A stretch of 64,000 nucleotides of DNA from Azovibrio restrictus DSM 23866 (GCF_000429665.1 NZ_AUCH01000018.1:25317-89316); one strand, 5' to 3'; positions 24,194 through 61,275 are shown, counted from the first letter of the stretch. A program made the numbers and translations. The notes: a model not told the origin generated them from the letters alone.

Positions 24194-25243
24194 TCAGGCC
24201 CCCAGGCGGGCGAACTGGAAGTAGGAGGACCAGAGGCAGTCCGCCTCCCAGTCCAGGGCGCCCTCCTGCAAGCCCTCCCGAGCGAGCATCTGTCGGGCCC
24301 GGGCGCTGGCCTCCTCGGGGGCGCTGACGTAGTAGACCGCGTGGCGCTGCTGCCCCTGCAGCAGGGTGTAGGCCAGGATGCCTTCCTGGCGCTGTTCCAG
24401 CTGGCCGGCCAGGTTGTCCTGGAGCTCCTGGGCCTGTTCCAGGGTAGCGGCACAGCGCACCGGCAGGCTCAAGGTGAGGGCGTGGGCCAGGTCGGCGCGC
24501 ATGGCCAGGGCATTGGCGCTTTCATTCACGCTCACCAGGCTGATTTCTTCCTGGTCCGCCCCGTCGTGGCGGGGGAAGCTCACTTCCAGTCCCCGCCAAC
24601 TCTGCTCGGAGGACGGGAAAAGCCCCGTATGGCCCAGGTCCTGCTGCCAGAAGGCATCGAACACCGGGCGGAAGCCGTTCAAGGGGATGGCCCCGGCGGG
24701 CAGGGGCTCCGGGGGAAAGACGAAATCCACGCAGCCTACCTTCACGGCGAAATCGTATTCTCCCAGGACGTGGTCCAGGATGATCATGGCCATGCCGGCG
24801 GCCTGATCCTGCTTCGCTTCGGGAATGGCTTCGGCAAAGCCGATCTCCAGGCCCACCTGGCCGTCATCGGCATAGTGCCGGACCAGCAGATCCCGGGTCT
24901 CCAGGTTCATGCCGTCCATGCTGATGCCGAAATCAGTGCCCTGGGAACGGGAGCGGAAAGCTTCCAGTTGATAGCCGGGCAGGGCGGGGGCCTGGGCAAC
25001 CAGGGCAGAAAGCAGGGGAAAGTGCTCACTCCGGCCGTGGGCGGTGAGGATCAGTTTCAGGGGCGGCTGCTCCTCCCTGCCGGACAGCTCAAAGGCCAGC
25101 TCCGGGTGGAAATCCGCCAGCCAGTCATTCCAGGCCGGCACCCTGTCGTGCGGGGGCAACGCGTTCCAGGCATCCAGTCCTTGCTGGAATTCCCGCCAGA
25201 AACGAGCGATGGCAACAGTGTCTTCAGCTTGGTGAGAGGGCAT
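24194..25243 (-). CDS. Hypothetical protein (~350 aa)
   Basis: An AGGAGCC RBS precedes the ATG at 25243. The alternative start at 25276 is less supported. No recognisable motif. Confidence 0.5.
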   Translation of the reverse strand: MPSHQAEDTVAIARFWREFQQGLDAWNALPPHDRVPAWNDWLADFHPELAFELSGREEQPPLKLILTAHGRSEHFPLLSALVAQAPALPGYQLEAFRSRSQGTDFGISMDGMNLETRDLLVRHYADDGQVGLEIGFAEAIPEAKQDQAAGMAMIILDHVLGEYDFAVKVGCVDFVFPPEPLPAGAIPLNGFRPVFDAFWQQDLGHTGLFPSSEQSWRGLEVSFPRHDGADQEEISLVSVNESANALAMRADLAHALTLSLPVRCAATLEQAQELQDNLAGQLEQRQEGILAYTLLQGQQRHAVYYVSAPEEASARARQMLAREGLQEGALDWEADCLWSSYFQFARLGA

Positions 25244-25310
25244 GGAGGCTCCTGATGATGTCGATGCGTGCGTCATTGAACACCGGGCGGTGCCCGGCAG
25301 GCAAGCGGGC

Positions 25311-26324
25311 TCAGCCCAGTTCCACCCGGTAGCAGCCGGCCATTTCCCGGGTTTCCATGTCCACGGCCAGGAACTTTCCGATCACTTCCATATTGCTGTG
25401 CAGGTGGGAGGAGAGCCGGTGGGTGGTGAAGCTGCCCTGCCCGGCCAGGGCCATCGGCAGTAGCAGCTGGTCGGCCAAGTGCTCGCCGACGGCTGCGCCG
25501 CTGTCCCGATAATGCCTGGCTTCCCTGGCCGCCTGGTCGGCCACGGTTTCCGCCGGCAGGCCCCGTTCGCCGCAGGCGGAAAAGAGCTCCGTCAGTTCCG
25601 GATACTCCAGCACCACCATCAGCACATTGCCCGGCCCCTCGTTGGCGGGCAGCACCCGCAGCTCCTCGTCCAGGGGCCCCAGGGAACTGGCGGCCCGCTG
25701 CATTTCCCGCTTGGCAATTTCAGCGGGCACCCCGGAAACCACGCCAATGGCGCGGGTGCGTTGCAGGGGGCCGGGGCTTTCCAGCTGCAAGGGCTGCCAG
25801 GCCGTGACCGGCGCCGTGGACGCCAGCACCTCGCCGCCGCCGGCCGGATAGAAGCCGTGACGCAGCAACTGGATGTCCAGCGTCACCCCCATGCGCTGCA
25901 GCAGCGGCTGCCAGCAGCGGATCAGGAAATCGGCCGGCGGCGCCGCCGGGTTGTGGGTGCCGCCGCTGACGCGCAGGGTGCTCGGTCCGTCGGCGTACCA
26001 CAGGGCCGGCAACACCGTCTGCAGCACCAGGGTGGAGCTGCCGGCGGAGCCGATGGCGAAGGCGTAATCCCCACCCCGGATCGGCCCCGGCTGGAAGCGC
26101 AAGCGTTGCGAGCCGGGCACAGCTCCTTCCACCTGCGCTCCACACACCGCGGCCGCCGCCTGCACGGCCGTCAGATGCTGACGCAGCAAGCCCGGTTTCC
26201 TGCGCCCGGCACGAATGCGCTCGATGGCAAAGGGGATGCCGGTGATCATCGACAGGCTCAAGGCCGTCCGCAAAATCTGGCCCCCGCCCTCACCGCGGGA
26301 ACCGTCGAGTTCTATCCATTCCAT
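25311..26324 (-). CDS. rtcA: RNA 3'-terminal phosphate cyclase RtcA
   Basis: The N-terminus LDGSRGEGGGQILRTALSLSMITGIPFAI is the RtcA signature. Length is ~337 aa. Confidence 0.9.
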   Translation of the reverse strand: MEWIELDGSRGEGGGQILRTALSLSMITGIPFAIERIRAGRRKPGLLRQHLTAVQAAAAVCGAQVEGAVPGSQRLRFQPGPIRGGDYAFAIGSAGSSTLVLQTVLPALWYADGPSTLRVSGGTHNPAAPPADFLIRCWQPLLQRMGVTLDIQLLRHGFYPAGGGEVLASTAPVTAWQPLQLESPGPLQRTRAIGVVSGVPAEIAKREMQRAASSLGPLDEELRVLPANEGPGNVLMVVLEYPELTELFSACGERGLPAETVADQAAREARHYRDSGAAVGEHLADQLLLPMALAGQGSFTTHRLSSHLHSNMEVIGKFLAVDMETREMAGCYRVELG

Positions 26325-26354: not shown

Positions 26355-27200
26355 TTAGTCGTTGCCGCCTCTAGCGCATGCAGCGATAGCGTCTGCCAGA
26401 ACGGAAGAGAAATAGCCGTCGGCGAGAATTTCCGGGTGAGTTTTCAGCGCCTCCAAGGCAGGAAGAAAACCTTGGTCAGCCAGGGCTGCCGCAGCATCTA
26501 TCGCCCAGGAACCGTGAAACTCCCCCTGCAGTTCCTGCATCACCCGCTCCCGAACCCGCTCATCCCCCCTCCGGGCAAGGCCGATCAAAGCTTCGCCGCG
26601 TATTTCGGGATCGGCATCGCCGCTCGCCGCCAGCAAGCCGTCCCGGATCGCCGGACCATCCTGTTCGCTCAAGGATGCCAGGCCAAAGGTCGCCCAGTTG
26701 CGCACGTCCCTTGCTTCGTCCTGCATCAGCCTCAGTAGCGCTTCAGCGGCTTCCGGCTGCGGATAACGGCCCAGGGCAAAGGCCAGTCCATGACGCAGCG
26801 TTGCACGCGAACTGTCCAGAAATGCAAGCATCTGCGGCAGATATTCGGGGAATTCCCGGTGACCCAATCCAAAAAGGCTCGCTTCATTGACCCGCCAGTG
26901 CGAGTCGCGCAGTCCTCGCCCCAGCATCTCTTTCGCCAATTCGACCTCCGCTGCCTGATGGGGCAACTTGGCGCCCGGCATGGCAAGCTGGCACAGAATG
27001 TTGACGACCAGCGTCCGCATGCGCCAGTTACGGCTTTGCGCATGCCGTCGCAGCCAGCTACCTTGATCCCTACCCCGGTATTGGCGAAGTGCCGTTACGC
27101 ATTCCCAGTAGGCATCGTCATCCTCGTCATGCTGCAAGGCCATGCCAATCAGCGAACGAGCCGTTTTTGACGCCAGACTCATGGGGTCCCGTGCCATCAT
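26355..27200 (-). CDS. HEAT-repeat (PBS-lyase-type) protein
   Basis: Repeated ~30-aa units read ...DVRNWATFGLASL... and ...DADPEIRGEALIGLARRGD. The ATG at 27200 overlaps the upstream stop (TGATG). Lower GC than the flanks. Confidence 0.7.
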   Translation of the reverse strand: MMARDPMSLASKTARSLIGMALQHDEDDDAYWECVTALRQYRGRDQGSWLRRHAQSRNWRMRTLVVNILCQLAMPGAKLPHQAAEVELAKEMLGRGLRDSHWRVNEASLFGLGHREFPEYLPQMLAFLDSSRATLRHGLAFALGRYPQPEAAEALLRLMQDEARDVRNWATFGLASLSEQDGPAIRDGLLAASGDADPEIRGEALIGLARRGDERVRERVMQELQGEFHGSWAIDAAAALADQGFLPALEALKTHPEILADGYFSSVLADAIAACARGGND

Positions 27201-28054
27201 CACTCCTTTTGTCCCGCATTAGCCGACACCGCCAGCACCGTCCGCATCAAAAACGCATCGAGTTCGGCGGCATCGCCCTCCGGCTTCTTGTAATCGGCAT
27301 CGACCACCGTCCGCGCCAGTTCGCTTTCGATAAAAGCGTGGATGCGCGGCCAGCGCGGGCTGTATTCGGCCTCGCCGGCGCGCATCTTGATTTCCAGCAG
27401 GGCGTTGATTTCGTCGAGCAGCGCCGCGTCCGTCACCAGGCGCTCGGCCAGATCAGCAAAGCGCATCGGCGGCTGGCCGAGGCCGTGTTCGATCCACTGC
27501 GCCGCCAGCAGCGGCCGCAGCACGTAGAGGTACTTCTTCAGCCGCACGCTGTCGCCCTGCAAGTAGCCGCGAAAGTTGCGGTGCGCCATCGCCAGGTAGT
27601 GATAACGCCCGCGCTTGGGCGAAAACCACTGTGTCGCCAGCTCGCGGATGCCTGCGGTCAAGGCCGTGTCTTCCCGGTAAACCACCGGCGAATCCAGCCA
27701 TTCAAGCAGCACCGGATTGGCCCGGCGCAACAGACGCAGCGCCTTGCGCAGCTCCCAGCCGCCGACATCCAGCTCGTCGCTGATCGGCAATTCGATCACG
27801 TCGCGCTTCGGCTCGACGGCGAGATACCAGGGCAGGCGATGGACGTAGAGGAAACGCACGTCGTAATCGCTGTCCGGCGACGCAAAGCCCCAGCCCCGGC
27901 TGCCGGATTCGCAGGCGTAGAGCACCGTGACATCGTGTTGTATCTCGATGTCGGCGAGCGCCTGCATGACCCGGTCGCGAACTTCCGGGTCTATGGGGTG
28001 GGCGCTCAGGACTTTTTGTTTTTCGGTTTCCATGATGGTGGCCGTTCTACCCAA
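27200..28054 (-). CDS. Polymerase-beta-superfamily nucleotidyltransferase (RlaP/PF10127-like, RNA-repair-associated)
   Basis: The NTase motif YACESGSRGWGFASPDSDYDVRFLYV matches the GS-x9-13-DxD pattern. The listed start 28054 is a TTG, and the ATG at 28033 (METEKQK) is an alternative. The gene sits between rtcB and rtcA. Confidence 0.7.
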   Translation of the reverse strand: MGRTATIMETEKQKVLSAHPIDPEVRDRVMQALADIEIQHDVTVLYACESGSRGWGFASPDSDYDVRFLYVHRLPWYLAVEPKRDVIELPISDELDVGGWELRKALRLLRRANPVLLEWLDSPVVYREDTALTAGIRELATQWFSPKRGRYHYLAMAHRNFRGYLQGDSVRLKKYLYVLRPLLAAQWIEHGLGQPPMRFADLAERLVTDAALLDEINALLEIKMRAGEAEYSPRWPRIHAFIESELARTVVDADYKKPEGDAAELDAFLMRTVLAVSANAGQKE

Positions 28055-29452
28055 TCAATCAAATTCTTCCAGCGAGACAAGCAATCGGTCGTGATTCCCC
28101 CATGCTTCTCTCAATCCACTCTGGCGCATGGCCTGGCGCAACCGTTCCTGCATGGCCGGCGGCTGGCTGGCGAGGGCATAGCGTTGTCTTGCCAGACTAT
28201 TTGCAAGCTCCCGGAGAATCGTCTGCTGTTCCGGCTTGCTGCGGTAACGCGGCAGCAATTCCAGCAACCAGGCCAAGTGTTCCCAGTAAGCCAGACGTTG
28301 CGCGAAAGCCAACTGACGACTGAGATCGCCGTGCCTTTCCAACGCTTCGCCGATCTGCTGCAACTGCTCGCCGGAGAGCAGAACCTTGCCCTTGCGCAGC
28401 AACTGCCCGGCCAGTTTCGCCACTTTTGGTGAACTATCGAGCATCGCCTGCACAGTTGGCACATCGGCCGTCTCCCGCGAAATGGCGACCCAGGCCAGCA
28501 AGGCGGCTTGCCGCACCTGCGGACGGACGTCGGCAAAGGCTTTTTCTACCAGCGGCAGGCTTCCCCGGTTTTTCAATACACCGAGTAGTTGCAGCCAGCC
28601 AAGGTAGGTTCGCGGCGCCAGGGCTTCTCCGTTGCCCTGAGCGGAGACAAACGCAGCCAGATCGAAGCCGATCTGCTTTGCTGCCCACAGCGCTACGCCA
28701 CGCACCGCGCCGGAAGGATCGAGCAAAGCCTGCTCGAGCAACGCCTGCCGGTCAGAAGGCGCCCTTTGCCACAGGGCCAGAAAAGCCTTTTGCCGATTGC
28801 GCGGATGGCGGTCGGTCAGTAAGGCGCGTAGGGCGGCTTCGGCGAGCGAACCGGATGCTTCGCAGGCAGACAGGAGGCGTGAACGGACGAGAAAATCTGC
28901 GTGCCGCGCGCTCAGCCGGACGACCTCAGCCTGCGCCGCTGCCGGCCAGCGCAGCATCCGCGACAGCAGGAAGCTGGCAACCGGGCCACGGCTTTTGCGG
29001 AAGCGGGCAAGCACCAGCGAGCGATGTTCCGGCCGGTCGAGAAAAGCGCCGACTTGATCGACAAACGTGCTGTGGTCGGTACGCGATTTCCCGGACAGAC
29101 CGACGATAGCTTCCAATGCAGCCAGAACAGCTGGTAGTCGTTCCGTTTCCAGATACGTTGCGGCGGCACCTCTTGCGGTCTGCCGAACTTCATACACCCA
29201 GTCGTTCAAGCGCAAGACGATAGCTTGCAGGGCAACCGGAGCCGGGCTTTTTGCCAGGCGCCAGGTTGCCTCCTCACGCACGAAACCGTCTTGGTCGCGG
29301 CTGAGCGTGACCAATATCCGTAGTGCATCATCCGCAGCGGGATCGCCTTCGGCAAGCAGCTCCTGGAGCAGGCGTCGCCGTTCGAGATGGGGCAAATTCG
29401 CGCCATCCGGTGTGCTGGCACGGCGCAGCACTTCCCGCAGTTTTTTCAGCAT
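28055..29452 (-). CDS. All-helical HEAT/ARM-like repeat protein (465 aa), function unknown
   Basis: It has helical repeat character. No vWA/MIDAS motif is present, so it is not a Ro60/Rsr orthologue. It lies immediately downstream of rtcB. Confidence 0.6.
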   Translation of the reverse strand: MLKKLREVLRRASTPDGANLPHLERRRLLQELLAEGDPAADDALRILVTLSRDQDGFVREEATWRLAKSPAPVALQAIVLRLNDWVYEVRQTARGAAATYLETERLPAVLAALEAIVGLSGKSRTDHSTFVDQVGAFLDRPEHRSLVLARFRKSRGPVASFLLSRMLRWPAAAQAEVVRLSARHADFLVRSRLLSACEASGSLAEAALRALLTDRHPRNRQKAFLALWQRAPSDRQALLEQALLDPSGAVRGVALWAAKQIGFDLAAFVSAQGNGEALAPRTYLGWLQLLGVLKNRGSLPLVEKAFADVRPQVRQAALLAWVAISRETADVPTVQAMLDSSPKVAKLAGQLLRKGKVLLSGEQLQQIGEALERHGDLSRQLAFAQRLAYWEHLAWLLELLPRYRSKPEQQTILRELANSLARQRYALASQPPAMQERLRQAMRQSGLREAWGNHDRLLVSLEEFD

Positions 29453-29456
29453 CTGC

Positions 29457-30674
29457 CTATCCTTTCACACAAACCACCTGCCGCAAGGTATGCACCACCT
29501 CCACCAGCTCGCGCTGGGCGTGCATCACGGCGTCGATGTCCTTGTAGGCCATCGGGATTTCATCGATCACGTCACTGTCCTTGCGGCACTCCACATGGGC
29601 GGTGGCCTTGATCTGGTCGTCCACGGTGAAGCGGCGCTTGGCTTCGTTGCGGCTCATGGTGCGCCCGGCGCCGTGGCTGCAGGAGCAAAAGGACTCTTCG
29701 TTACCCAGGCCGCGCACGATGTAGCTGCGGGCGCCCATGGACCCGGGGATGATCCCGAGCTCGCCCTTCTTGGCCGACACGGCGCCTTTTCGCGTCACCA
29801 GCACCTCGCTTCCGAAGTGGGTTTCGCGCTGCACGTAGTTGTGGTGGCAGTTCACCGCTTCCACGTCGGCGGTGAAGGGCTTGGCGATGATCTGGCGTGC
29901 CGCCGCGACGACGTTGGTCATCATCACGTCGCGGTTACGCCGGGCAAAGTCCTGGGCCCAACCCACGGCTTCCACGTAATCGGCGAAGTGCTCGGCGCCT
30001 TCCTCGAAGTAGGCGAGATTCTTGTCCGGCAGGTTGGCGATGTGCTGGCGCATATCGGCCTGGGCCAGTTCGATGAAATGGCTGCCGATGGCGTTACCCA
30101 CTCCGCGCGAACCGGAATGCAACATGAACCAGACGTGATCGGCCTCGTCGAGGCAGACTTCGATGAAGTGGTTACCGGTTCCCAGGGTTCCCAGGTGTTT
30201 GTAGTTGTTGGTGTTCTTCAGGCGCGGGTATTTTTCGGTGATGCGCGTGAAGCCCGGCAGCAAGGCCGACCACATGGCGTCGACGGCTTCCGGCGGGTTT
30301 TCCCACGAGCCTTTATCGCGCCCGCTACGGGTCATGGTTCGCCCGTGCGGCACGGCAGCTTCGATGGCCGAGCGCAGGCCGTGCAGGTTATCCGGCAGGT
30401 CGCTGGCAGTCAGCGTGGTACGCGCCGCCATCATGCCGCAGCCGATATCGACGCCGACCGCCGCCGGGATGATCGCCCCTTGCGTCGGGATCACGCTGCC
30501 GATGGTCGAACCCTTACCCAGATGCACGTCCGGCATCACCGCCAGGTGGCGGAAGATGAAGGGCATCTTCGCAGTGTTCATCAGCTGTTTGCGGGCGTCG
30601 TCCTCGACCGGGACGCCTTCGGTCCACAGTTTGATCGGCTTGCCTTCGCTCACGTCTTGTACTTGATAGGGCAT
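29457..30674 (-). CDS. rtcB: RNA-splicing ligase RtcB (3'-phosphate/5'-OH RNA ligase)
   Basis: RtcB motifs GTLGTGNHFIE, HSGSRGVG, HNYV and the overall ~405-aa architecture are present. An AAAGGAAAG RBS precedes the start. Confidence 0.92.
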   Translation of the reverse strand: MPYQVQDVSEGKPIKLWTEGVPVEDDARKQLMNTAKMPFIFRHLAVMPDVHLGKGSTIGSVIPTQGAIIPAAVGVDIGCGMMAARTTLTASDLPDNLHGLRSAIEAAVPHGRTMTRSGRDKGSWENPPEAVDAMWSALLPGFTRITEKYPRLKNTNNYKHLGTLGTGNHFIEVCLDEADHVWFMLHSGSRGVGNAIGSHFIELAQADMRQHIANLPDKNLAYFEEGAEHFADYVEAVGWAQDFARRNRDVMMTNVVAAARQIIAKPFTADVEAVNCHHNYVQRETHFGSEVLVTRKGAVSAKKGELGIIPGSMGARSYIVRGLGNEESFCSCSHGAGRTMSRNEAKRRFTVDDQIKATAHVECRKDSDVIDEIPMAYKDIDAVMHAQRELVEVVHTLRQVVCVKG

Positions 30675-30728: not shown

Positions 30729-30790
30729 CTGGTGGACACGGCGGGACTCGAACCCGCAGTAAGCCGCCATCGGGCATTACTCCGATGTGC
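30729..30790 (-). ncRNA. tRNA 3'-half-like module (T-arm + acceptor 3' strand + encoded CCA) in the rtcB leader
   Basis: The minus strand reads ...GCGGG-TTCGAGT-CCCGC-CGTGTCC-A-CCA, ending 55 nt upstream of the rtcB ATG. No matching 5' acceptor strand was found. A preceding hairpin (CATCGG-AGTAATGC-CCGATG) has an 8-nt loop. Confidence 0.5.
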
Positions 30791-30950
30791 GGGGAAGCTT
30801 TAAACGCGCGCCATTCGCGGAACCTTACGCAGACCCCGGAACTGCATCCTCAAATACCGCTCCCCGCTGAAGCTTTCGGTTTTACCCTTCACCGGTCTCG
30901 TCACTCGTTTACCGGCCGCTCGCCGTTTCGCGTTCGTGCCCTTGTTCGTT

Positions 30951-31370
30951 TCAATGCCCGTTGGCCAAAGCAGCCAGACGCGCCTGTTTTCTCAACAACC
31001 CGGCCTGTGACACCTGCCGGGCCAATTCCTTGCGTTGCCGTTCGCGCTGGCGGCAGGGACGGCAGCGTTTGGCGATGGCGTCTTGCGAACCGCCGATGGT
31101 TTCGTACCACCAGCGTTGCTGCTCGGCGGTCCACACGCAGGCCGCAGCGCAATCGCAGCAGGTGAAGGGCCTATCGACGTAGTAGCCGCGCAGCGCGAAG
31201 GGGCTCAGGCCATAGCTGTTATTGGCCATCAGCTTGCTGTAATCCACCGGCACGACAGGGCCGGGCGGCGGTGCAACAACCCGGTTGGCCGCTCGCGCTG
31301 CCAGGCGATGCAGCCGCCGCGCCGCCTTGATCTCGGCGCGGCGCTGTTTTCCGCTTTTGTAGCCTTCCAT
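30951..31370 (-). CDS. Hypothetical Cys-rich basic protein (139 aa)
   Basis: A clean ORF with Cys clusters (CCDCAAAC, CRPC). It sits between the SPFH gene and rtcB. Confidence 0.5.
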   Translation of the reverse strand: MEGYKSGKQRRAEIKAARRLHRLAARAANRVVAPPPGPVVPVDYSKLMANNSYGLSPFALRGYYVDRPFTCCDCAAACVWTAEQQRWWYETIGGSQDAIAKRCRPCRQRERQRKELARQVSQAGLLRKQARLAALANGH

Positions 31371-31432
31371 GTTCGTTTCTCCTTGCTATAGGCTGTTCGC
31401 CCTGCGCTCAGCTGCCCGCTCCAGCCAGGCAG

Positions 31433-32569
31433 CTACTTCGCCAGGGTCACCAACCCGTTCAACACCTGATCGAGGCCACCGAAGACCGAGATGCGGTCGA
31501 TCCGTTCGGCCACCCGCTCCAGGGTTTCCAGTTCCTTCAGGCGCAGGGCGACCGGGTTGTCTTCCATGACCTTGGCGGTGTTGAGCAGCGAGCGGGTCGC
31601 CGCCGTTTCCTCGCGCCGGCGCAGCACGTTGGCTTCCGCTGCCTTGCCGGCTTCCACCACCTGGGCCAGGATGGCTTTCATCTCGCCCGGCAGCACGATG
31701 TCCTTGACGCCGACACCGCCGATTTCCAGGCCGAAGCCGGCCAGTTTCCGGGTCACATGTTCGGCCACCACCTCGTCGATGAGCTGCTTGTTTTCCAGCA
31801 ATTCGTCCAGGTTGCGCGTCCCGACCGCCGCCCGCAGGCCGAACTGCAGTTCCCGGTAGAGGTGTTCGCCCGGCTTGGCCAGCCGGGCGAAGGCGCCGAG
31901 CACGTCATCGAAACGCCAGGTGGCGGCCAGGTTGAGGCGCAGGCCCACCTTGTCCCGGGTGAGGATTTCCTGGCCGGTCACTTCCATGGTCTGCCAGCGG
32001 GTATCCACCAGCTCCACCTGCAGGTCCCGGTTGAAGCGCCAGTAGGCCGTCACTCCGGGCTGCAGCAGGGGCTGCTGCACGCCGTCGATGCGCAGCAGAC
32101 CCACGTGGGCAGCCGGCACCTGCACCATGAAGACGCCGTTCAGTCCCAGCACCGGGCGGCCGCGCAGGGCGGGCTGCAGCAGGCGCTTCACCATTTCGGC
32201 CGGCAGGGCGGCGTCGGCCCGCAGGTCGAGCTTTTCCAGCCGCTGGCTCACCAGGCCGCGCCAGAACACCCGGCGGGCGGCGGGGGGCAGCACTTCCACC
32301 AGCACGTCGTTCTCGTAGCGCAGCCCCACCTCATCCTCGTTCAGGTCCATGCAGACGAAATGGCGCTCGGCCTCGGCCGGATCGTTCTGGCGCAGGTAGT
32401 CCACCAGCTCCGTGTCAGCCATGGGGGCATCGGTGTGCCATACGGTCAGCGACAGGGCGCCGAGCGGATCAAAAAAGTAATGGCGGCCCGGATTGAGGAT
32501 GCGCTCGAAATCCCCGTTGCGCAGCAGGGCGGCCCGTTCGTTCTTCTTCACGATGAAACGCTTCAACAT
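31433..32569 (-). CDS. SPFH/band-7 (stomatin/slipin-like) domain protein
   Basis: The C-terminal region GVKDIVLPGEMKAILAQVVEAGKAAEANVLRRREETAATRSL is typical of the SPFH family. It is the first ORF of the rtc operon. Confidence 0.7.
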   Translation of the reverse strand: MLKRFIVKKNERAALLRNGDFERILNPGRHYFFDPLGALSLTVWHTDAPMADTELVDYLRQNDPAEAERHFVCMDLNEDEVGLRYENDVLVEVLPPAARRVFWRGLVSQRLEKLDLRADAALPAEMVKRLLQPALRGRPVLGLNGVFMVQVPAAHVGLLRIDGVQQPLLQPGVTAYWRFNRDLQVELVDTRWQTMEVTGQEILTRDKVGLRLNLAATWRFDDVLGAFARLAKPGEHLYRELQFGLRAAVGTRNLDELLENKQLIDEVVAEHVTRKLAGFGLEIGGVGVKDIVLPGEMKAILAQVVEAGKAAEANVLRRREETAATRSLLNTAKVMEDNPVALRLKELETLERVAERIDRISVFGGLDQVLNGLVTLAK

Positions 32570-32831
32570 TTTGTTCTCCCTTGCGTCGATGAAATCTGCC
32601 GGCTCACGCCGGTCCGGCGGATGCCCGGATTGGCCCTGGTGGGGGGGCTTGGGCTGCCGGGCGTCGGCACTGGCTACGGCCCGGACCTGTGGTCCGGACT
32701 GTGCGTCGCCTGACGCCCGGCAGCTTCACCCTGCCGCCAAGGCAGACCCGGGCACCGGGCCGGACCGGCGGCGGGTGCTTGCGCATGCCGCAGCCGGCGG
32801 GGTACTGCTGTAAGGCTGTCGTGTGAGGACA

Positions 32832-32905
32832 GTTTTGGAGCGGGATTCGAACCCGCGACACACCGTTGATGAGACGGTTGCTCTACCCGATTGAGCTATC
32901 CAATG
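32832..32905 (-). tRNA. tRNA-Met(CAU)-like gene, probably defective (pseudo-tRNA / tRNA mimic)
   Basis: The minus strand reads CATTGGA-TA-GCTC-AATCGGGTA-GAGC-A-ACCGT-CTCATCA-ACGGT-GTGTC-GCGGG-TTCGAAT-CCCGC-TCCAAAA. The D, anticodon and T arms are canonical with anticodon CAT. Position 37 is C, acceptor base pairs 1:72 and 2:71 are mismatched (C:A, A:A), and no CCA is encoded. Confidence 0.55.
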
Positions 32906-33030
32906 GAGGGATGACCGGGAATCGAACCCGGGCGAGCCACCAGGCACCCCGACATCGCTTTCCTGCAGCTGCGGCATACGGCGGAATGACCGGAAACTTC
33001 CTGATTCCACCGCACCGGCGGGGTTGGACC
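32904..33030 (-). ncRNA. tRNA-like module (T-arm CCGGG-TTCGATT-CCCGG + acceptor 3' TCATCCC-T-CCA) preceded by a stable hairpin (GGTGGAAT...ATTCCGCC); abuts the tRNA-Met-like element
   Basis: Read from the minus strand. No complementary 5' acceptor strand is present. The direct-repeat segments CCGGTCAT(T/C)CC occur twice. Confidence 0.45.
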
Positions 33031-33074
33031 CCCTGTCCCGTGGGCTTTGCTGCAAGTGGGCGACGGCTACTCTA

Positions 33075-33091
33075 TTGCGAGAGGCGTGCCA
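33075..33091 (-). promoter_or_regulatory. Candidate sigma54 promoter (TGGCAC-GCCTC-TCGCA on minus) for the tRNA-like-SPFH-rtcB-...-rtcA operon, presumably RtcR-dependent
   Basis: The plus strand TGCGAGAGGCGTGCCA is the reverse complement of TGGCACgcctcTCGCA. The -24 GG and -12 GC are correctly spaced, with one mismatch to TTGC. It lies between divergent rtcR and the operon. Confidence 0.55.
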
Positions 33092-33366
33092 GCTAGACGG
33101 TTGTGGCGCAAGTCATTGAATTAACGGGCTTGTGCTGGCGGACTGGGAGATGTGGTCTGCTAATTAACGATTTATTGTTATAGTTGTTTATAAATTTATC
33201 TATGCACTGAAGTGGCGGCTTGCTTTTTTGAGCCGCTGAAAAACCAACCCCTCCCGGCCTCCCCTTGTCAGGGGAGGAGCATCCGTCGCCACGCGATGGC
33301 ACTTCCCCCTGACAAGGGGGCTGGGGGGCCACCTTTTTTCCGGATGACCGTGAGATTCCCCTCCCC

Positions 33367-34953
33367 ATGAAAAAAACCGTCGTCATCGGCTTTGTCGGCA
33401 TCCAGCTCGACTATGCCGGCAAGGGCAGCGCCCGCTGGGAGAAGTGGCGGCCCACCGTCGCCCTGTGCCAGCAGGAAGACCTGGTCGTGCATAGGCTGGA
33501 AGTGATCCACGACGCGCGCAGCCGCAGCCTGGCCGAGCGCATCGGCAACGACGTCGCCCGCATTTCGCCGGAGACCGAGTTCAAGCGGCTGGAAATGGAA
33601 CTGCGCGACCCCTGGGATTTCGAGGAGGTGTACACCGCTCTGCACGACCTAGCGCGCAGCTATCCCTTCGATACCGAGAACGAGGATTACCTGATCCACA
33701 TCACCACGGGCACCCACGTGGCGCAGATCTGCTGGTTCCTGCTCGCCGAGGCGCACTACCTGCCGGCGCGCCTGTTGCAGACCTCGCCGCCGCGCAAGAA
33801 GGAGATCGCCAATTCGGTCGGCAGCTACGAGATCATCGACCTGGACCTGTCCCGCTACGACCGCATCGCCCAGCGTTTCGCCCGGGAGCGCGACGACAAC
33901 CTGTCCTTCCTCAAATCCGGCATCGCCACGCGCAACCCGGCGTTCAACCGGATGATCGAGCAGATCGAACAGGTCGCCGGCCGTTCGCGCGCGCCGATGC
34001 TGCTGGTCGGCCCGACCGGCGCCGGCAAGTCCTTCCTCGCCCGCCGCGTTTTTGAACTGAAACGCCAGCGCCAGCAACTGAAAGGCCGTTTCATCGAAGT
34101 GAACTGCGCCACCCTGCGCGGCGACTCGGCCATGTCCACCCTCTTCGGCCACAGCAAGGGCGCCTTTACCGGCGCGCAACAGGAACGGCCCGGCTTGCTT
34201 CGTTCCGCCGATGGCGGCCTGCTCTTTCTCGACGAAATCGGCGAACTCGGCCTCGACGAACAGGCCATGCTGCTCAAAGCCATCGAGGAAAAACGCTTCT
34301 TCCCCTTCGGCAGCGACCAGGAGGCAAGCAGCGACTTCCAGCTCATCGCCGGCACCCACCGCGACCTGCGCCAGTGGGTGCGCCAGGGCAAGTTCCGCGA
34401 AGACCTCTACGCCCGCATCAACCTGTGGACCTTCGACCTGCCCGGCCTCGCCGGCCGCCCGGAGGACATCGAACCCAACCTCGACTACGAGCTGGAACGC
34501 TTCGCCGCCGAACACGGCCAGCAGGTGCGTTTCAATGTCGAAGCAAGGCGCCGCTACCTGGCCTTCGCCACCTCACAGGCCGCGCGTTGGCACGGCAACT
34601 TCCGCGAATTGGGCGCTTCCCTCACCCGCCTCGCCACGCTGGCTACCGCCGGGCGCATCACGGAAAGCGACGTCGCCGACGAAATCGCCCGCCTCACCGC
34701 CACCTGGGCCGAAGAACCCACGGCCGACGCCTGCGCCCAGGTGCTTGGCGGCGAAGCGGACCAGCTCGACCTCTTCGACCGCAGCCAGTTGAATGCCGTC
34801 ATCGCCGTCTGCCGCGCCAGCCCCAGCCTGTCGGAGGCAGGGCGGCGGCTGTTTGCGGTATCGCGGGTGGAAAAGAAACAGAGCAACGACGCCGACCGGC
34901 TGCGCAAATACCTGGCCCGCTTCGGGCTTAGCTGGGGGGCGCTGCGGGGCTAG
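33367..34953 (+). CDS. rtcR: Sigma54-dependent transcriptional regulator RtcR (CARF sensor domain + AAA+ + HTH)
   Basis: The N-terminus MKKTVVIGFVGIQLDYAG is an RtcR/CARF signature. The AAA+ region has Walker A GPTGAGKS and the GAFTGA motif. Length is 528 aa. The gene is divergent from the rtc operon. Confidence 0.9.
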   Translation: MKKTVVIGFVGIQLDYAGKGSARWEKWRPTVALCQQEDLVVHRLEVIHDARSRSLAERIGNDVARISPETEFKRLEMELRDPWDFEEVYTALHDLARSYPFDTENEDYLIHITTGTHVAQICWFLLAEAHYLPARLLQTSPPRKKEIANSVGSYEIIDLDLSRYDRIAQRFARERDDNLSFLKSGIATRNPAFNRMIEQIEQVAGRSRAPMLLVGPTGAGKSFLARRVFELKRQRQQLKGRFIEVNCATLRGDSAMSTLFGHSKGAFTGAQQERPGLLRSADGGLLFLDEIGELGLDEQAMLLKAIEEKRFFPFGSDQEASSDFQLIAGTHRDLRQWVRQGKFREDLYARINLWTFDLPGLAGRPEDIEPNLDYELERFAAEHGQQVRFNVEARRRYLAFATSQAARWHGNFRELGASLTRLATLATAGRITESDVADEIARLTATWAEEPTADACAQVLGGEADQLDLFDRSQLNAVIAVCRASPSLSEAGRRLFAVSRVEKKQSNDADRLRKYLARFGLSWGALRG

Positions 34954-36139: not shown

Positions 36140-39100
36140 TCAGATGCCGCCGCCGCTACGCCAGGCCTGGGTCAGTTTGGCCAGGGCCTGTTGGGTGGGG
36201 CCGGAAGGCCAGAGGGTGGCCAGCCAGTCCAGGTGCGCCGCCTGGGTTTCCAGGGTCTGGCGTTCCCGCAGGGCGGCGGCCTGAGCCTGGTAACGGCGGG
36301 CCAGGGCGGTGCCGAGGGCGGGATCTTCCAGGGCGGCGGGGCTGCCCGGGTGCAGCAGGCTGTGGCCCAGGGCGCTGACCCGCTCGGCTTCCAGCATCAG
36401 GAGGGCGTCACTGGAGTCCTGAGCCAGCTCCTGCAGCCAGACCTGGCCCTGGGCCTGCCATTCGGCCAGGGCCGCCGCCTGGCCCCGGGCGGCGAGGATC
36501 AGGGTGGCATCCAGGGCGGCCAGCAGGGCTGGCCCGTGGCAGGATTCGCCGCCGTCCCGGGCTAGGGTGCTGGCGCTCAGGCAGCTGGCGCGCATCTGCT
36601 CCAGGCTCTTCTCGGGATTGCGCCGGCTGTGCAGCCGGGCCAGGCTGAGGCAGGCCAGCCCCTGGGCCAGCCGGTAGCGGCGTCCGGCGTTTTCTCCCAG
36701 GGCCAGGGCGAGTTCCAGCCGCTTCAGGCCCTGTTCCACCAGGGCCAGCCCCTCCGCTTTGCCCTGCCGGAGTTCAGCCAGGCCCTGGAGGGTTTCCAGG
36801 GCGGCCAGGGCATCCACCATGTCCAGCCGGGCGCTGCCGTCGGCCTGGAGCAGGGCGGCCCGGTAATGGCTGATGGCCGGGGCCCAGCCGGGCTCTCCCA
36901 GTTCGCTCCAGGCAGCGGCCAGGCTGCCACGGATGGCGCCGTACTGGAGGAAGCGGCCTCGGGCCGCGTTTTCCAGGGCGTTCAGGCGGGCCTGGTAGCG
37001 CTCCCGGGCCGGGGCGTCGGTGAGGGTGAGCTGGCTGCGGGCGTGCAGCTGCAGCAGGTCGGTGTGGAACTGGGCCGGGTGCAGGTAGTCGGGCAGGCGT
37101 TCCTCGGCCCGGGGGTCGGGGGCCAGCTGGTAACGTTCATCCCCGTAGGCCTGGTAGGCGCCCCAGGTGTTGCAGTCCGGGTGCCGGGCATAGGTGGCCT
37201 GGCGGGCCTGCAGCACCGCGTCCCCCAGGGGGTGACCGGCCAGCATGGCGCTGTGGAAAGTGGTGGCGAAGGTTTCCGCAGCCTGGTCATCCACGGCCCA
37301 GCCGGCGGCCACTACCGCCTTGCAGCCCATTTCGATGAATTCGGTGGCCAGATTGGCCGCCAGCCTGCCCCAGCGGGGCCGGGCGTCGCCCGCCATGCTG
37401 CCCAGGTGGCAGCAGTTGATGAACACCAGTTCCGGCACCCGGCGCAGCTTGCTGATCTGGGCCGTGGTGAGATACACGCCGGCTTCCATCACCAGCCCGG
37501 TCTGGCCGGCGCCGGCCTCCGCCACCTGGCCGTGGGCGGCCAGGTGCATGACCTGGTATTCCCCGTCGAACAGGCGCGCCAGGATGTCCTGGCTGTCGGC
37601 CTGGTAGAGGGGCATGCAGCTGTAGGCCTGGGCTTCGTACAGCCCGGCCACGGCCCGGGCCTCCCGCTGGGCCCCGGGCAGTTCGACCAGGCCGGAACGG
37701 GTGTCGCCCAGGACCAGCAGCCGGCGGTTGCGCACCACCCGCACCTTGTTGCGCCCGTGGGGGCTGGCCAGCTGGCGGATCAGGCCGACCCGGCAGGCCA
37801 GGGGCTGGCCTCCGGCTTCCGGGCGCATCAGTTCCCAGGGATAGACCGCCGCCTTGTCGTCCACCCCCAGGATCAGGCCGCGCAGGTCGGCGATGGCCGC
37901 CTTGAGGCTGTTGGGGATCATCAGCTCGAACAGGGCCCGGGACAGGCCGGGCTGGTCCCGGGTGCTGCCGGTGGCGGCGCGCAGCAGGCCGTCCACCGCC
38001 TGGCGCTGATCGGGTTCCTCATCCACCCCGTTCCTGGCCTGGCTGGTGATCAGGGTGAAGCGCAGGGCCTCGCCCTGGGCGCCGGCGGTGACGTGCACCC
38101 GCGGCCAATGCTGGCTGCGGTCCTGGTCCTGGGCTTCCCCGGGGCCCCGGAAGGCGCCGGCGGCCCGGGCCAGGCTGCCGTCGTAGCTGAGGCAGTCCCG
38201 GTAGCGTTCTTCCCGCACCAGTTCCTGCAGGCTGCGGGCGGCGGCGATGGCCCGGGCTTCCTCCTCCTCGAACAGTTCCAGGCTGGCGATGGGGGCCAGG
38301 CCCGGGGTCTCCTGCAGGCGCCGGTTGGCTTCCCGCAGGGCGTCGGCCAGGCTGCGCAGGGCCAGGCTGAGTCCCAGGCCCCCGTAACCGCTGCCCACCA
38401 GCAGGGTGGCCAGGGACACCGGTTCGGGGGCGGAGGGCGAGCGCTGGGCGAGATTGCGCACGTACTCCAGCAGGCCCTGGGTCAGCAGCCGGGTGAGGCG
38501 GCCGGGGGTGAGATCACCCAGGCTGCCCAGCCCCAGCACCACGGCCCCGGGAAAGCGGCTGCCCGCCGGGGCCGGGAACACCAGCACCTCTCCGGCCCAG
38601 CCGTTGAAGCGGCCCAGGTTGCGGGCCTGCTCCAGGCCGCCTCCCAGCTGCTTGTTTACGAAGCCGACGCTGCCGCGCAGGGATTCATGGCTGTAGGCGC
38701 CCACCAGCACCGGGCTGCCGGCGTTGGCGAGGCTGCCGTGGGTGATGCCGATACGGGCGGGTTCGGCTTCTGCCGCCGCTGTCGGCTGGCCGGGGGCGGC
38801 GCCTCCCAGGGCGGCGGCTTCCACCTCTTCCGGGCTGGGGTAGATGCGCGGCGGCGCCAGGGGGGCAGGCTGGAATCCGCCGGGGCCCGCCGCGCGGCTG
38901 GCCGGGGGCGTGCCGGGCAGGGGGCAGCGGCCGGTCTGCAGCAGTTGCAGGTAGGCGGCAAAGCAGTCCTGGGCCCGCATCAGGTCCCCGTGGGCGGCCG
39001 GGGCATACCAGACCGGCACTCCGGCCGGGATGCCGGTGGCCCAGGCCACCCGGCCGTCACCCGCCTGGCTCCAGCGGATTTCCATCTGGCCGTCGTGACA

Positions 39101-60924: not shown

Positions 60925-61275
60925 TTTCCAACGCTCCCCGGTGGTGGCTCGGGGTGTTGGAGGATGTGGCCGGTCTTGCGGAAGCGGCAGGCGGGATGCG
61001 CCAGCTGCCTGCGGACAGGGGCCGTCATCGTCCTGGAGGCACCCCGCTCCGTTCGACAAAGTGATCTGGACGGGCGAGGTATCCTGGCTTTCGGGTCATC
61101 GCGTCGCGCCGGCCTTCCCGGAAAAATCCAGTGGCACCGATGGCGTGAAACTCACCGACTACAGTTGCGGGGGCAGCTCCGGAATGGGGCGGATGTTTCC
61201 GCCGGGACCGGATTCCCTGACACGTCTGGGGCCGGAGTTTAGGCGGGGGGTAGAGGCCGTGTCAACGGAGTTTTT

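Follow-up and report, generated by a model that had tools for sequence, protein, structure and literature searches.

A structured leader RNA with tandem tRNA-like modules and a second tRNA-like RNA in the RtcB RNA-repair operon of Azovibrio restrictus

The RNA-repair locus

Here, we describe two non-coding RNA elements in an RNA-repair operon of Azovibrio restrictus DSM 23866, located in a window of 64,000 nucleotides (nt), the whole stretch of DNA analysed (GCF_000429665.1 NZ_AUCH01000018.1:25317-89316), whose own numbering is used for all coordinates. The first element is a leader of about 470 nt (33064-32598, minus strand) between a sigma54 promoter and the gene for an SPFH/Band-7 protein; judged by comparison with relatives, it is one covariation-supported, structured non-coding RNA with four parts, two of which, tL1 and tL2, resemble tRNAs. 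The second, E3, is a 212-nt RNA in front of the RNA ligase gene rtcB. Comparison of related loci shows both RNAs to be conserved, structured, linked to genes of the operon and non-decoding, with the leader always placed before the SPFH gene. An earlier sequence-only reading of the window had proposed that the operon encodes non-decoding tRNA mimics, and this proposal stands: the modules keep a fixed position behind a conserved sigma54 promoter in several proteobacterial orders, their helices covary, and the anticodon loop of tL2 drifts.

Relatives were gathered by a genome scan in which 569 related loci could be confirmed; the best 80 of them (63-92% identity) were retained. These best 80 belong to the beta- and gammaproteobacteria, namely Rhodocyclales, Burkholderiales, Burkholderia, Ralstonia, Chitinimonas and Pseudomonas. 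Leader comparisons draw on 51 promoter-anchored leaders, and the pair and loop counts of tL1 and tL2 on 46 sequences.

The sigma54 (-24/-12) promoter, TGGCACGCCTCTCGCA, lies at 33076-33091 on the minus strand, with a transcription start inferred near 33065. It had been put forward as a candidate promoter divergent from rtcR, and it proves to be the sole match to the consensus TGGCACG-N4-TYGCW in the 64-kb window, where 0.06 would be expected. The strict consensus recurs 452-565 nt 5' of the SPFH ATG in 50 of the 80 loci. On the opposite strand, rtcR (33367-34953, plus) encodes the sigma54 activator with an RtcR/CARF-type N-terminal domain (Pfam RtcR 4e-86, Sigma54_activat 1e-50), an arrangement divergent from the operon that is common to about 50 related loci.

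Read away from the divergent RtcR gene, the operon runs leader, SPFH, zinc finger, RtcB, HEAT, RlaP, HEAT and RtcA. All of its genes are on the minus strand. The SPFH gene (31433-32569) is followed by one for a small treble-clef zinc-finger protein, zf_Tbcl (30951-31370; Pfam PF13451 2e-10), which occurs in a subset of related loci only, and by rtcB itself (29457-30674; Pfam RtcB 1e-129). Further downstream are a first HEAT-repeat protein (28055-29452; Pfam HEAT_2), the nucleotidyltransferase RlaP (27200-28054; Pfam RlaP 2e-95), reportedly named in Burroughs and Aravind 2016, a second HEAT-repeat protein (26355-27203; Pfam HEAT_2) and the cyclase RtcA (25311-26324; Pfam RTC 2e-78). Among relatives, the stable synteny comprises divergent RtcR, a spacer of about 650 nt, SPFH, sometimes the zinc-finger gene, RtcB, sometimes RlaP, and RtcA. 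A Pfam scan covered 10 open reading frames (ORFs), namely RtcR, eight operon ORFs and the ORF at 33093-33401; none of these 10 neighbouring ORFs matched the TROVE/Ro60 family, in keeping with the earlier remark that no Rsr/Ro60 gene was recognisable. Neither a sigma70-like promoter nor an intrinsic terminator was found on the minus strand from 33500 to 30500, a result consistent with a single transcription unit from the leader through the downstream genes.

Architecture of the leader RNA

The T-loop motif GGTTCGANTCC occurs only three times in the window (32928-32918, 32853-32843 and 30754-30744), always on the minus strand and always within the operon, against 0.11 copies expected; none of 100 shuffles reached three. 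Two of these motifs lie in the leader, and among the 51 promoter-anchored leaders, 46 carry two T-loop motifs, at roughly +163 and +238 relative to the promoter. In an explicit pair count over 46 leaders, 95.6% of cells pair, compared with 36-46% when the partners are slid, and 33 of the 52 pairs in this alignment show compensatory change, a value reached by none of 500 shuffles.

The 5' domain (32954-33064, minus), defined by RNAalifold and by the covariance model R2, is an irregular long stem closing a two-hairpin junction. The stem consists of P1 (33064-33060/32958-32954), P2 (33053-33049/32969-32965) and P3 (33045-33044/32972-32971), and the junction holds hairpins A (33041-33014) and B (33013-32978), all on the minus strand. 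Model R2 has exactly one match in each of 79 of 84 sources, without exception 5' of the SPFH gene, Burkholderiales loci without RtcR included. In an alignment fitted to the model, and thus with an inflated paired percentage, 94.2% of cells are paired versus 36-43% in slid controls, with compensatory change in 32 of 37 pairs, matched by none of 500 shuffles. R2 had no match in 0.93 Mb of viral DNA carrying both sequence anchors, and no phage or viral copy of the leader or E3 was found, the pattern matches in IMG/VR being chance ones with no model hits.

At the other end, a conserved hairpin (CTGTC...GACAG; 32816-32832, minus) directly follows tL2, with 95.2% of cells paired and three of five pairs compensatory. 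Beyond it lies the 3' domain (32598-32798, minus), a closed multi-helix structure of about 200 nt held by S1 (32798-32792/32604-32598) and S2 (32770-32759/32618-32607), which ends 28 nt before the SPFH ATG. RNAalifold on 31 sequences assigns it 37 pairs, 31 with compensatory change. The conserved CCUCCCCG sits in the inner helices of this domain; a role as a free anti-Shine-Dalgarno sequence is ruled out, as it is paired inside a covarying helix.

Between these domains stand the two tRNA-like modules. The first, tL1 (32904-32950, minus), is a mini tRNA-like module with a 6-7 bp acceptor (GGGGTG/CATCCC, 32950-32945/32913-32908), a D-like hairpin of 2-3 bp with a GG loop and a canonical T-arm (CCGGG-TTCGATT-CCCGG, 32931-32915), and it lacks an anticodon arm. 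Over the 46 leaders, the T-arm covaries, as do the acceptor strands (GGGGTGC/TCATCCC, GTGCGAG/CTCGCAC, GGGCGAT/GTCGCCC and TGGCTTG/CCAGCCA, for example). The distance from acceptor to T-arm is fixed at 12-16 nt, apart from Pseudomonas, where it is about 41 nt and ARAGORN recognises tL1 as a full cloverleaf that abuts tL2 without a linker. In the window, tL1 ends in T-CCA (32907-32904); since NCCA follows tL1 in only 10 of the 46 leaders, an encoded CCA was rejected as a feature of the family. Mini tRNA mimics of the mascRNA type resemble tL1, the match to the Rfam mascRNA family being weak at 20.4 bits against a gathering score of 42.5.

The sequence-only reading had taken 32904-33030 as one tRNA-like 3' module. 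Its T-arm, acceptor 3' strand and T-CCA are indeed present, but the tRNA-like part spans only 32950-32904 and the remainder is 5' domain. That reading had also counted three separate modules in the operon; the first two are instead adjacent domains of the one leader, and the third is the end of the 212-nt E3.

A cloverleaf that does not decode

The second module, tL2 (32832-32905, minus), is the sole tRNA call made by ARAGORN in the window, as tRNA-Met(CAT), and scores 49.7 bits with the Rfam tRNA model against a gathering score of 29, the match being only local and covering model positions 3-68 of 71. Its acceptor has 5 bp (32903-32899/32839-32835), its anticodon arm lies at 32878-32862 and its T arm at 32856-32840. 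Direct reading of the sequence bears out the description first given of it, a nearly complete tRNA-Met(CAU)-like gene: 1:72 is C.A and 2:71 is A.A, both mismatched, position 37 is C (loop CUCAUCA), and position 72 is followed by CTG, so that no CCA is encoded. The D arm, GCTC-AATCGGGTA-GAGC, has a GG in its loop, and the T loop, TTCGAAT, is of the elbow-capable TTCRANY type.

All four arms of tL2 are supported by pair counts, and the acceptor covaries (TTGGA/TCCAA versus TTCGA/TCGAA). However, in all 46 relatives only 4-5 bp of this acceptor are conserved, short of the 7 bp of a decoding tRNA. The anticodon stem also covaries, whereas its loop has 7 nt in only 19 of the 46 and takes 26 distinct forms; it is 4-6 nt long in another 26, among them GAAA, GCAA and UUCG tetraloops. 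The identity that ARAGORN gives the orthologues accordingly ranges over Met, Thr, Leu, Ile, Val, Asn, Lys, Glu, Arg and Phe, and some are reported to lack a proper anticodon. Conservation extends to the D and T arms, the short acceptor and the nucleotides that form the elbow. On these comparative grounds tL2 is a non-decoding element in which the tRNA shape, not the anticodon, is conserved; with a dispensable anticodon loop, the shape and not decoding is probably what matters. Repeated occurrence of CAU in loops of 7 nt suggests that the element descends from a tRNA bearing this anticodon. For genome annotation, this means that tL2 orthologues are being called as tRNAs of arbitrary identity (Met, Arg, Ile and others) and should be excluded from the decoding tRNA set.

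These data bear directly on the explanation that the modules are ordinary tRNA genes, tRNA pseudogenes or attachment-site (att) remnants of an integrated element. In its favour, ARAGORN and Rfam both recognise tL2 as a tRNA, the P. aeruginosa counterpart carries the annotation tRNA-Arg, and tRNA 3' halves are typical att remnants. Yet Rhodocyclales, Burkholderiales, Burkholderia, Ralstonia and Pseudomonas all keep the same position relative to promoter and SPFH gene, the helices are kept by compensatory change while the anticodon drifts, the acceptor is truncated in all relatives, and the 64-kb window holds no further T-arm copy. We regard this explanation as having a negligible chance of being right. 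In particular, an ordinary tRNA-Met gene is ruled out by the truncated acceptor and variable anticodon loop, and att-site remnants by the position conserved across orders and the absence of further copies in the window; the sequence-only reading had likewise denied that the modules are att-site duplications.

The drifting loop also informs two proposals in which the RNA acts as a tRNA substitute. In the first, the uncleavable tRNA-shaped modules would be decoys or competitive inhibitors that absorb the triggering nuclease or toxin. An anticodon loop of 4-6 nt in 26 of 46 relatives, stable GNRA and UUCG tetraloops included, would suit this purpose, as would two elbows per RNA, and the same idea has been raised for the Y RNA YrlA, which is not cut by a DNA-damage-induced anticodon nuclease. 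However, the part of a tRNA that anticodon nucleases usually recognise is the anticodon loop, and here it is missing or variable; an RNA induced through sigma54 would have to hold its own against a very large pool of cellular tRNA; and neither the non-tRNA 5' and 3' domains nor the strict linkage to SPFH would be explained. A decoy role is thus improbable in our estimate. In the second proposal, cleaved mimics would release 5' fragments with 2',3'-cyclic phosphates that are bound by RtcR's CARF domain and tune induction. Such feedback is harder still to credit, and we think it very improbable: the loop lacks conservation and is frequently a tetraloop, the 5' half of tL2 is joined covalently to tL1 and the 5' domain and so would not look like a tRNA half, and the leader would be made only once RtcR is already active.

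E3, an RNA linked to rtcB

E3 (30730-30941, minus) has the topology of a transfer-messenger RNA (tmRNA). Its ends pair as a 7-bp acceptor, GGGCACG with CGTGTCC (30941-30935/30740-30734), which closes a multi-helix insert of about 150 nt and is accompanied by a T-arm (30757-30741), a discriminator A and an encoded CCA (30732-30730). The 3' end at 30730 lies 55 nt before the rtcB ATG (30674). This element had been described as a third tRNA 3' half; the T-arm, the CCA and the distance to rtcB hold, but it is not a 3' half, given the 5' acceptor strand at 30941-30935.

The covariance model R1 retrieves 13 strong copies and two diverged ones. In a model-fitted alignment, which inflates the percentage, 95.9% of cells are paired versus 35-43% when slid, with 28 pairs compensatory. 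RNAalifold on the 10 distinct copies (six genome loci, window included, and four distinct ones among seven metagenome matches) gives 59 pairs, 17 of them compensatory. The acceptor covaries (GGGCGTG/CACGTCC, GGGTGTG/CATGCCC, GGGTACG/CGTGCCC), the T-arm is invariant, the discriminator is A or G, and NCCA is present in 12 of 13 aligned copies. Support for a structure comes from comparison only, because the minimum free energy of E3 is not unusual (z = -0.31 versus shuffles) and gives no thermodynamic signal.

E3 is present in only six of the 80 genome loci, and most copies lie immediately 5' of rtcB; it is tied to rtcB and not to the zinc-finger gene. An informative gene order is that of L087 (748-5620), which reads RtcR, E3, RtcB, two abutting tRNA-like elements (both called tRNA-Pro) and an SPFH gene whose product is 42% identical; the 5' domain model has no match at this locus. 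This order indicates that the tandem tRNA-like pair goes with SPFH and E3 with RtcB. As a separate observation, the metagenome contig L082 (722-2485, minus) carries an rtcB fragment, the two diverged E3-like copies (57 and 49 bits) and then nine tRNA genes (Asp, Glu, Arg x3, His, Cys, Pro and Ile), one of two links seen between an Rtc module and a tRNA array.

The tmRNA-like outline, in which an acceptor formed by the two ends surrounds a large domain and is followed by T-arm, discriminator and CCA, does not make E3 a tmRNA. It scores 11.7 bits against a threshold of 47 with RF00023 (in an end-to-end alignment) and 16.1 against 47 with RF04321, and ARAGORN reports none. Furthermore, the frame GCA...GCG-TAA seen in the window is not conserved: CAA stands at the stop in L003, L081 and L084, and L084 additionally has a 1-nt deletion. 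Low model scores and the unconserved tag frame together rule out a tmRNA or mini-tmRNA.

The acceptor end has a further property. G1-C72, G2-C71, G3:U70 and A73 are acceptor features of tRNA-Ala and tmRNA, and the E3 of the window has all four, followed by CCA. Pair 3:70 is G:U in six of 13 copies, the window among them, and G:C in seven (L003 and L005 have G3:C70). With G3:U70 in only six of 13, a conserved alanine identity is unsupported. E3 matched no family in Rfam, and it appears to be absent from Rfam and from the literature reached, where Burroughs and Aravind 2016 was not compared directly.

The SPFH protein

The leader precedes a gene for a 378-aa SPFH/Band-7 ('slipin') protein (31433-32569, minus; Pfam Band_7 5e-27), which the sequence-only reading had correctly named as the gene downstream of the modules. 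Its homologues number in the thousands, the closest named ones being 'slipin family' proteins of Azonexus and Dechloromonas. No membrane helix is predicted (maximum 19-aa Kyte-Doolittle score 1.46), and the protein is predicted to be soluble. An AlphaFold2 (AF2) model (mean predicted local distance difference test score, pLDDT, 78) has an all-beta N-terminal region of about 145 aa, an SPFH domain and a long helix. With this model, Foldseek matched stomatin, HflKC and prohibitin at E values of 1e-13 to 1e-10, and aligned major vault protein over its whole length (420-480 columns), weakly, with a template modelling (TM) score of about 0.4. The protein is probably ring-forming, as the SPFH proteins matched by the model form rings or cages. 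Its beta-rich N-terminus, SPFH domain and long helix weakly recall major vault protein, which has an SPFH-like shoulder domain and forms the vault particle together with vault RNA.

Relation to known RNAs

The sequence-only reading implied that the arrangement was new, which is not so. A band-7-associated tRNA, termed b7a-tRNA, was predicted by Burroughs and Aravind (NAR 2016), as summarised by Wang et al. (bioRxiv 10.1101/312249); going by this summary, the core idea of operon-encoded tRNA mimics is already in print since 2016. Wang et al. (2018) describe the existence of b7a-tRNA as without experimental validation and suggest that it may be functionally redundant with YrlA (bioRxiv 10.1101/312249). 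Rfam contains no b7a-tRNA family. By its features, tL2 matches the three descriptive features that the citing text gives and can be placed in b7a-tRNA: it is recognised as a tRNA by ARAGORN and, over the gathering score, by Rfam; it stands beside a Band-7/SPFH gene, whose ATG is 262 nt downstream, a linkage kept in the 80 related loci; and it lies inside an RtcB operon with RtcB, RtcA, RlaP and divergent RtcR. Unlike the b7a-tRNA known from the citing text, tL2 is one domain of a leader of about 470 nt with a second tRNA-like module and two non-tRNA domains. The tandem of two tRNA-like modules and the multi-domain leader thus appear to go beyond the accessible record, in which Burroughs and Aravind 2016 was not compared directly.

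A positional counterpart has also been annotated and discussed in Pseudomonas aeruginosa, where PA4581.1 ('tRNA-Arg4') lies between rtcR (PA4581) and the rtc cluster and is without CCA (PMC13637947). Quantitative reverse transcription PCR (qRT-PCR) detected PA4581.1 at about half the level of canonical tRNA (PMC13637947). It shares with tL2 the position, the missing CCA and unusual tRNA features, the correspondence being one of position only, and differs in being annotated and discussed as a tRNA gene.

A further parallel is the Salmonella rsr-yrlBA-rtcBA operon, whose Y RNAs, YrlA and YrlB, act in trans as ribonucleoprotein (RNP) components with Ro60 (Rsr). Like the leader and E3, they are non-coding, have tRNA-like T and D arms, lie between an RtcR/sigma54 promoter and rtcB, and stand beside the gene of a putative scaffold protein. 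In Mycobacterium smegmatis, YrlA is cleaved by RNase P and then receives CCA. The YrlA family (RF02553) does give a partial match spanning the tL1 T-arm and the tL2 D-arm, at 26.3 bits against a gathering score of 69 and over positions 30-81 of 114. However, the 10 neighbouring ORFs include no TROVE/Ro60 match, the Ro-binding motif GNCGAAN0-1G is absent from leader and E3, and in YrlA the Ro-binding stem closes just one, permuted tRNA-like domain, whereas the leader here has two unpermuted modules in tandem. A YrlA-like permuted fold joining the tL1 T-arm to the tL2 D-arm was rejected on its score and on the covariation of both acceptors. In Pseudomonas, a YrlA-type hairpin would be impossible, because the acceptor strands of tL1 and tL2 abut without a linker.

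Possible functions

The targets of bacterial RtcB and the roles of its accessory factors are open questions in the field, and to our knowledge Ro60 with its Y RNA is the only RNA-protein accessory of an rtc operon that has been studied. By analogy with the Y RNAs of Ro60, the leader and E3 may be RNA partners or scaffolds of the operon proteins, a reading to which we give about an even chance. Among the roles put forward by the sequence-only reading (decoy, substrate, RtcR inducer or scaffold), the comparative data favour a scaffold or partner role and weigh against any that needs a cleavable anticodon loop. In the proposed course of events, tRNA damage would cause RtcR to fire the sigma54 promoter, and the leader, either free or still attached to the mRNA, would fold and bind the soluble, probably ring-forming SPFH protein. 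Its elbows, acceptors and T-arms could then offer handles for RtcB, RtcA, RNase P, the CCA-adding enzyme and RlaP, which extends damaged RNA 3' ends by one or two nucleotides. Alternatively, the tRNA-like parts may occupy the nucleases that damage tRNA.

Several points weigh against a partner role. In P. aeruginosa, the level of PA4581.1 is unchanged upon induction of the Rtc proteins (PMC13637947), which misfits simple sigma54 co-induction, and deletion of the adjoining SPFH gene (PaFlo8/PA4582) had no phenotype in the assays tried. An interaction between SPFH protein and leader is something we infer from gene linkage. The pair counts for the 5' domain and E3 (models R2 and R1) come from model-fitted alignments with inflated paired percentages. 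Moreover, the placement of each RNA immediately 5' of 'its' gene would fit a cis-acting leader equally well.

Such a cis explanation would make leader and E3 5'-UTR or intercistronic elements that serve as leaders or processing signals. RNase P, RNase Z or RNase E, drawn in by the tRNA-like parts, would cleave the polycistronic transcript, and these parts may also shield the ends of fragments from exonucleases; how stable the SPFH and rtcB mRNAs are, or how well they are translated, would be set in this way, with no function in trans. The explanation fits the finding that neither a promoter nor a terminator separates the leader from the genes, and the short distances to the start codons, 28 nt from the 3' domain to SPFH and 55 nt from E3 to rtcB. 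It also fits the way in which the leader stays 5' of SPFH, and E3 mostly 5' of rtcB, despite a change of gene order (L087), while the 7-bp acceptor, T-arm and NCCA of E3 favour recognition by RNase P, by the rule stated for YrlA. On the other side, a processing signal needs far less than some 470 nt of RNA in which covarying or conserved pairs exceed 120 and the loop sequences are highly conserved; CCUCCCCG is buried in a helix and unable to act as an anti-Shine-Dalgarno sequence; YrlA and YrlB, which occupy the equivalent slot of their operon, act in trans as parts of an RNP; and in L082 the E3-like copies lie downstream of the rtcB fragment, with tRNA genes and not rtcB coming after them. 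We consider the cis explanation unlikely, though it carries appreciable weight.

A bolder form of the partner reading holds that the leader and the vault-protein-like SPFH protein form a Ro/Y-RNA-like or vault-like RNP that holds broken tRNAs for RtcB, RtcA and RlaP, and that E3 represents an undescribed class of RNA with tmRNA topology whose acceptor end is matured and, where G3:U70 is present, charged with alanine. This combination is speculative and, as a whole, quite unlikely; if true, charging of E3 would couple RtcB repair to the translation machinery. Whichever role applies, the b7a-tRNA prediction is now concrete, with exact boundaries, a covariation-backed structure for the four leader domains, evidence for shape over anticodon, and in addition the rtcB-linked E3.

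Neighbouring tRNA arrays and other features of the window

In several Burkholderiales relatives (Roseateles, Piscinibacter, Ramlibacter, Caldimonas, Rubrivivax and Aquabacterium), the region 0.8-2.5 kb upstream of the leader-SPFH unit holds, on the same strand, an array of 3-13 tRNA genes of full length. These genes score 33-67 bits with Rfam over positions 1-71 and include many isoacceptors. The arrays are found in L042 (2713-3886), L079 (2135-3813), L062 (2819-3877) and L074 (2804-3840), and also in L058, L063, L067, L068, L030, L032 and L077; there is no RtcR within 5 kb at these loci. In L042, a gene for an HNH endonuclease lies between array and leader, one for an NtrC-type sigma54 activator lies upstream, and one for a ClpP/SDH-like protease follows SPFH. 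The presence of apparently normal tRNA genes in arrays beside the leader-SPFH module hints at a wider link, in which RNA repair goes together with replacement of damaged tRNA.

Some further features of the window were recorded. The interval from rtcR to the sigma54 promoter contains a perfect 14-nt inverted repeat, CCCCTTGTCAGGGG / CCCCTGACAAGGGG (33261-33274 and 33306-33319, 31 nt apart); this repeat was rejected as a conserved RtcR binding site and is probably strain-specific, because it is missing from the equivalent spacer of 17 relatives. The ORF after rtcA (24194-25276, minus) has a weak, sub-threshold match to DUF695 (E 8e-4; 20.1 bits, cut-off 23.1). A very long ORF of 1768 aa occupies 36140-41446 (minus), not far past rtcR, and a cobalamin riboswitch aptamer is found at 61077-61218 (minus; Rfam RF00174, 82.3 bits).

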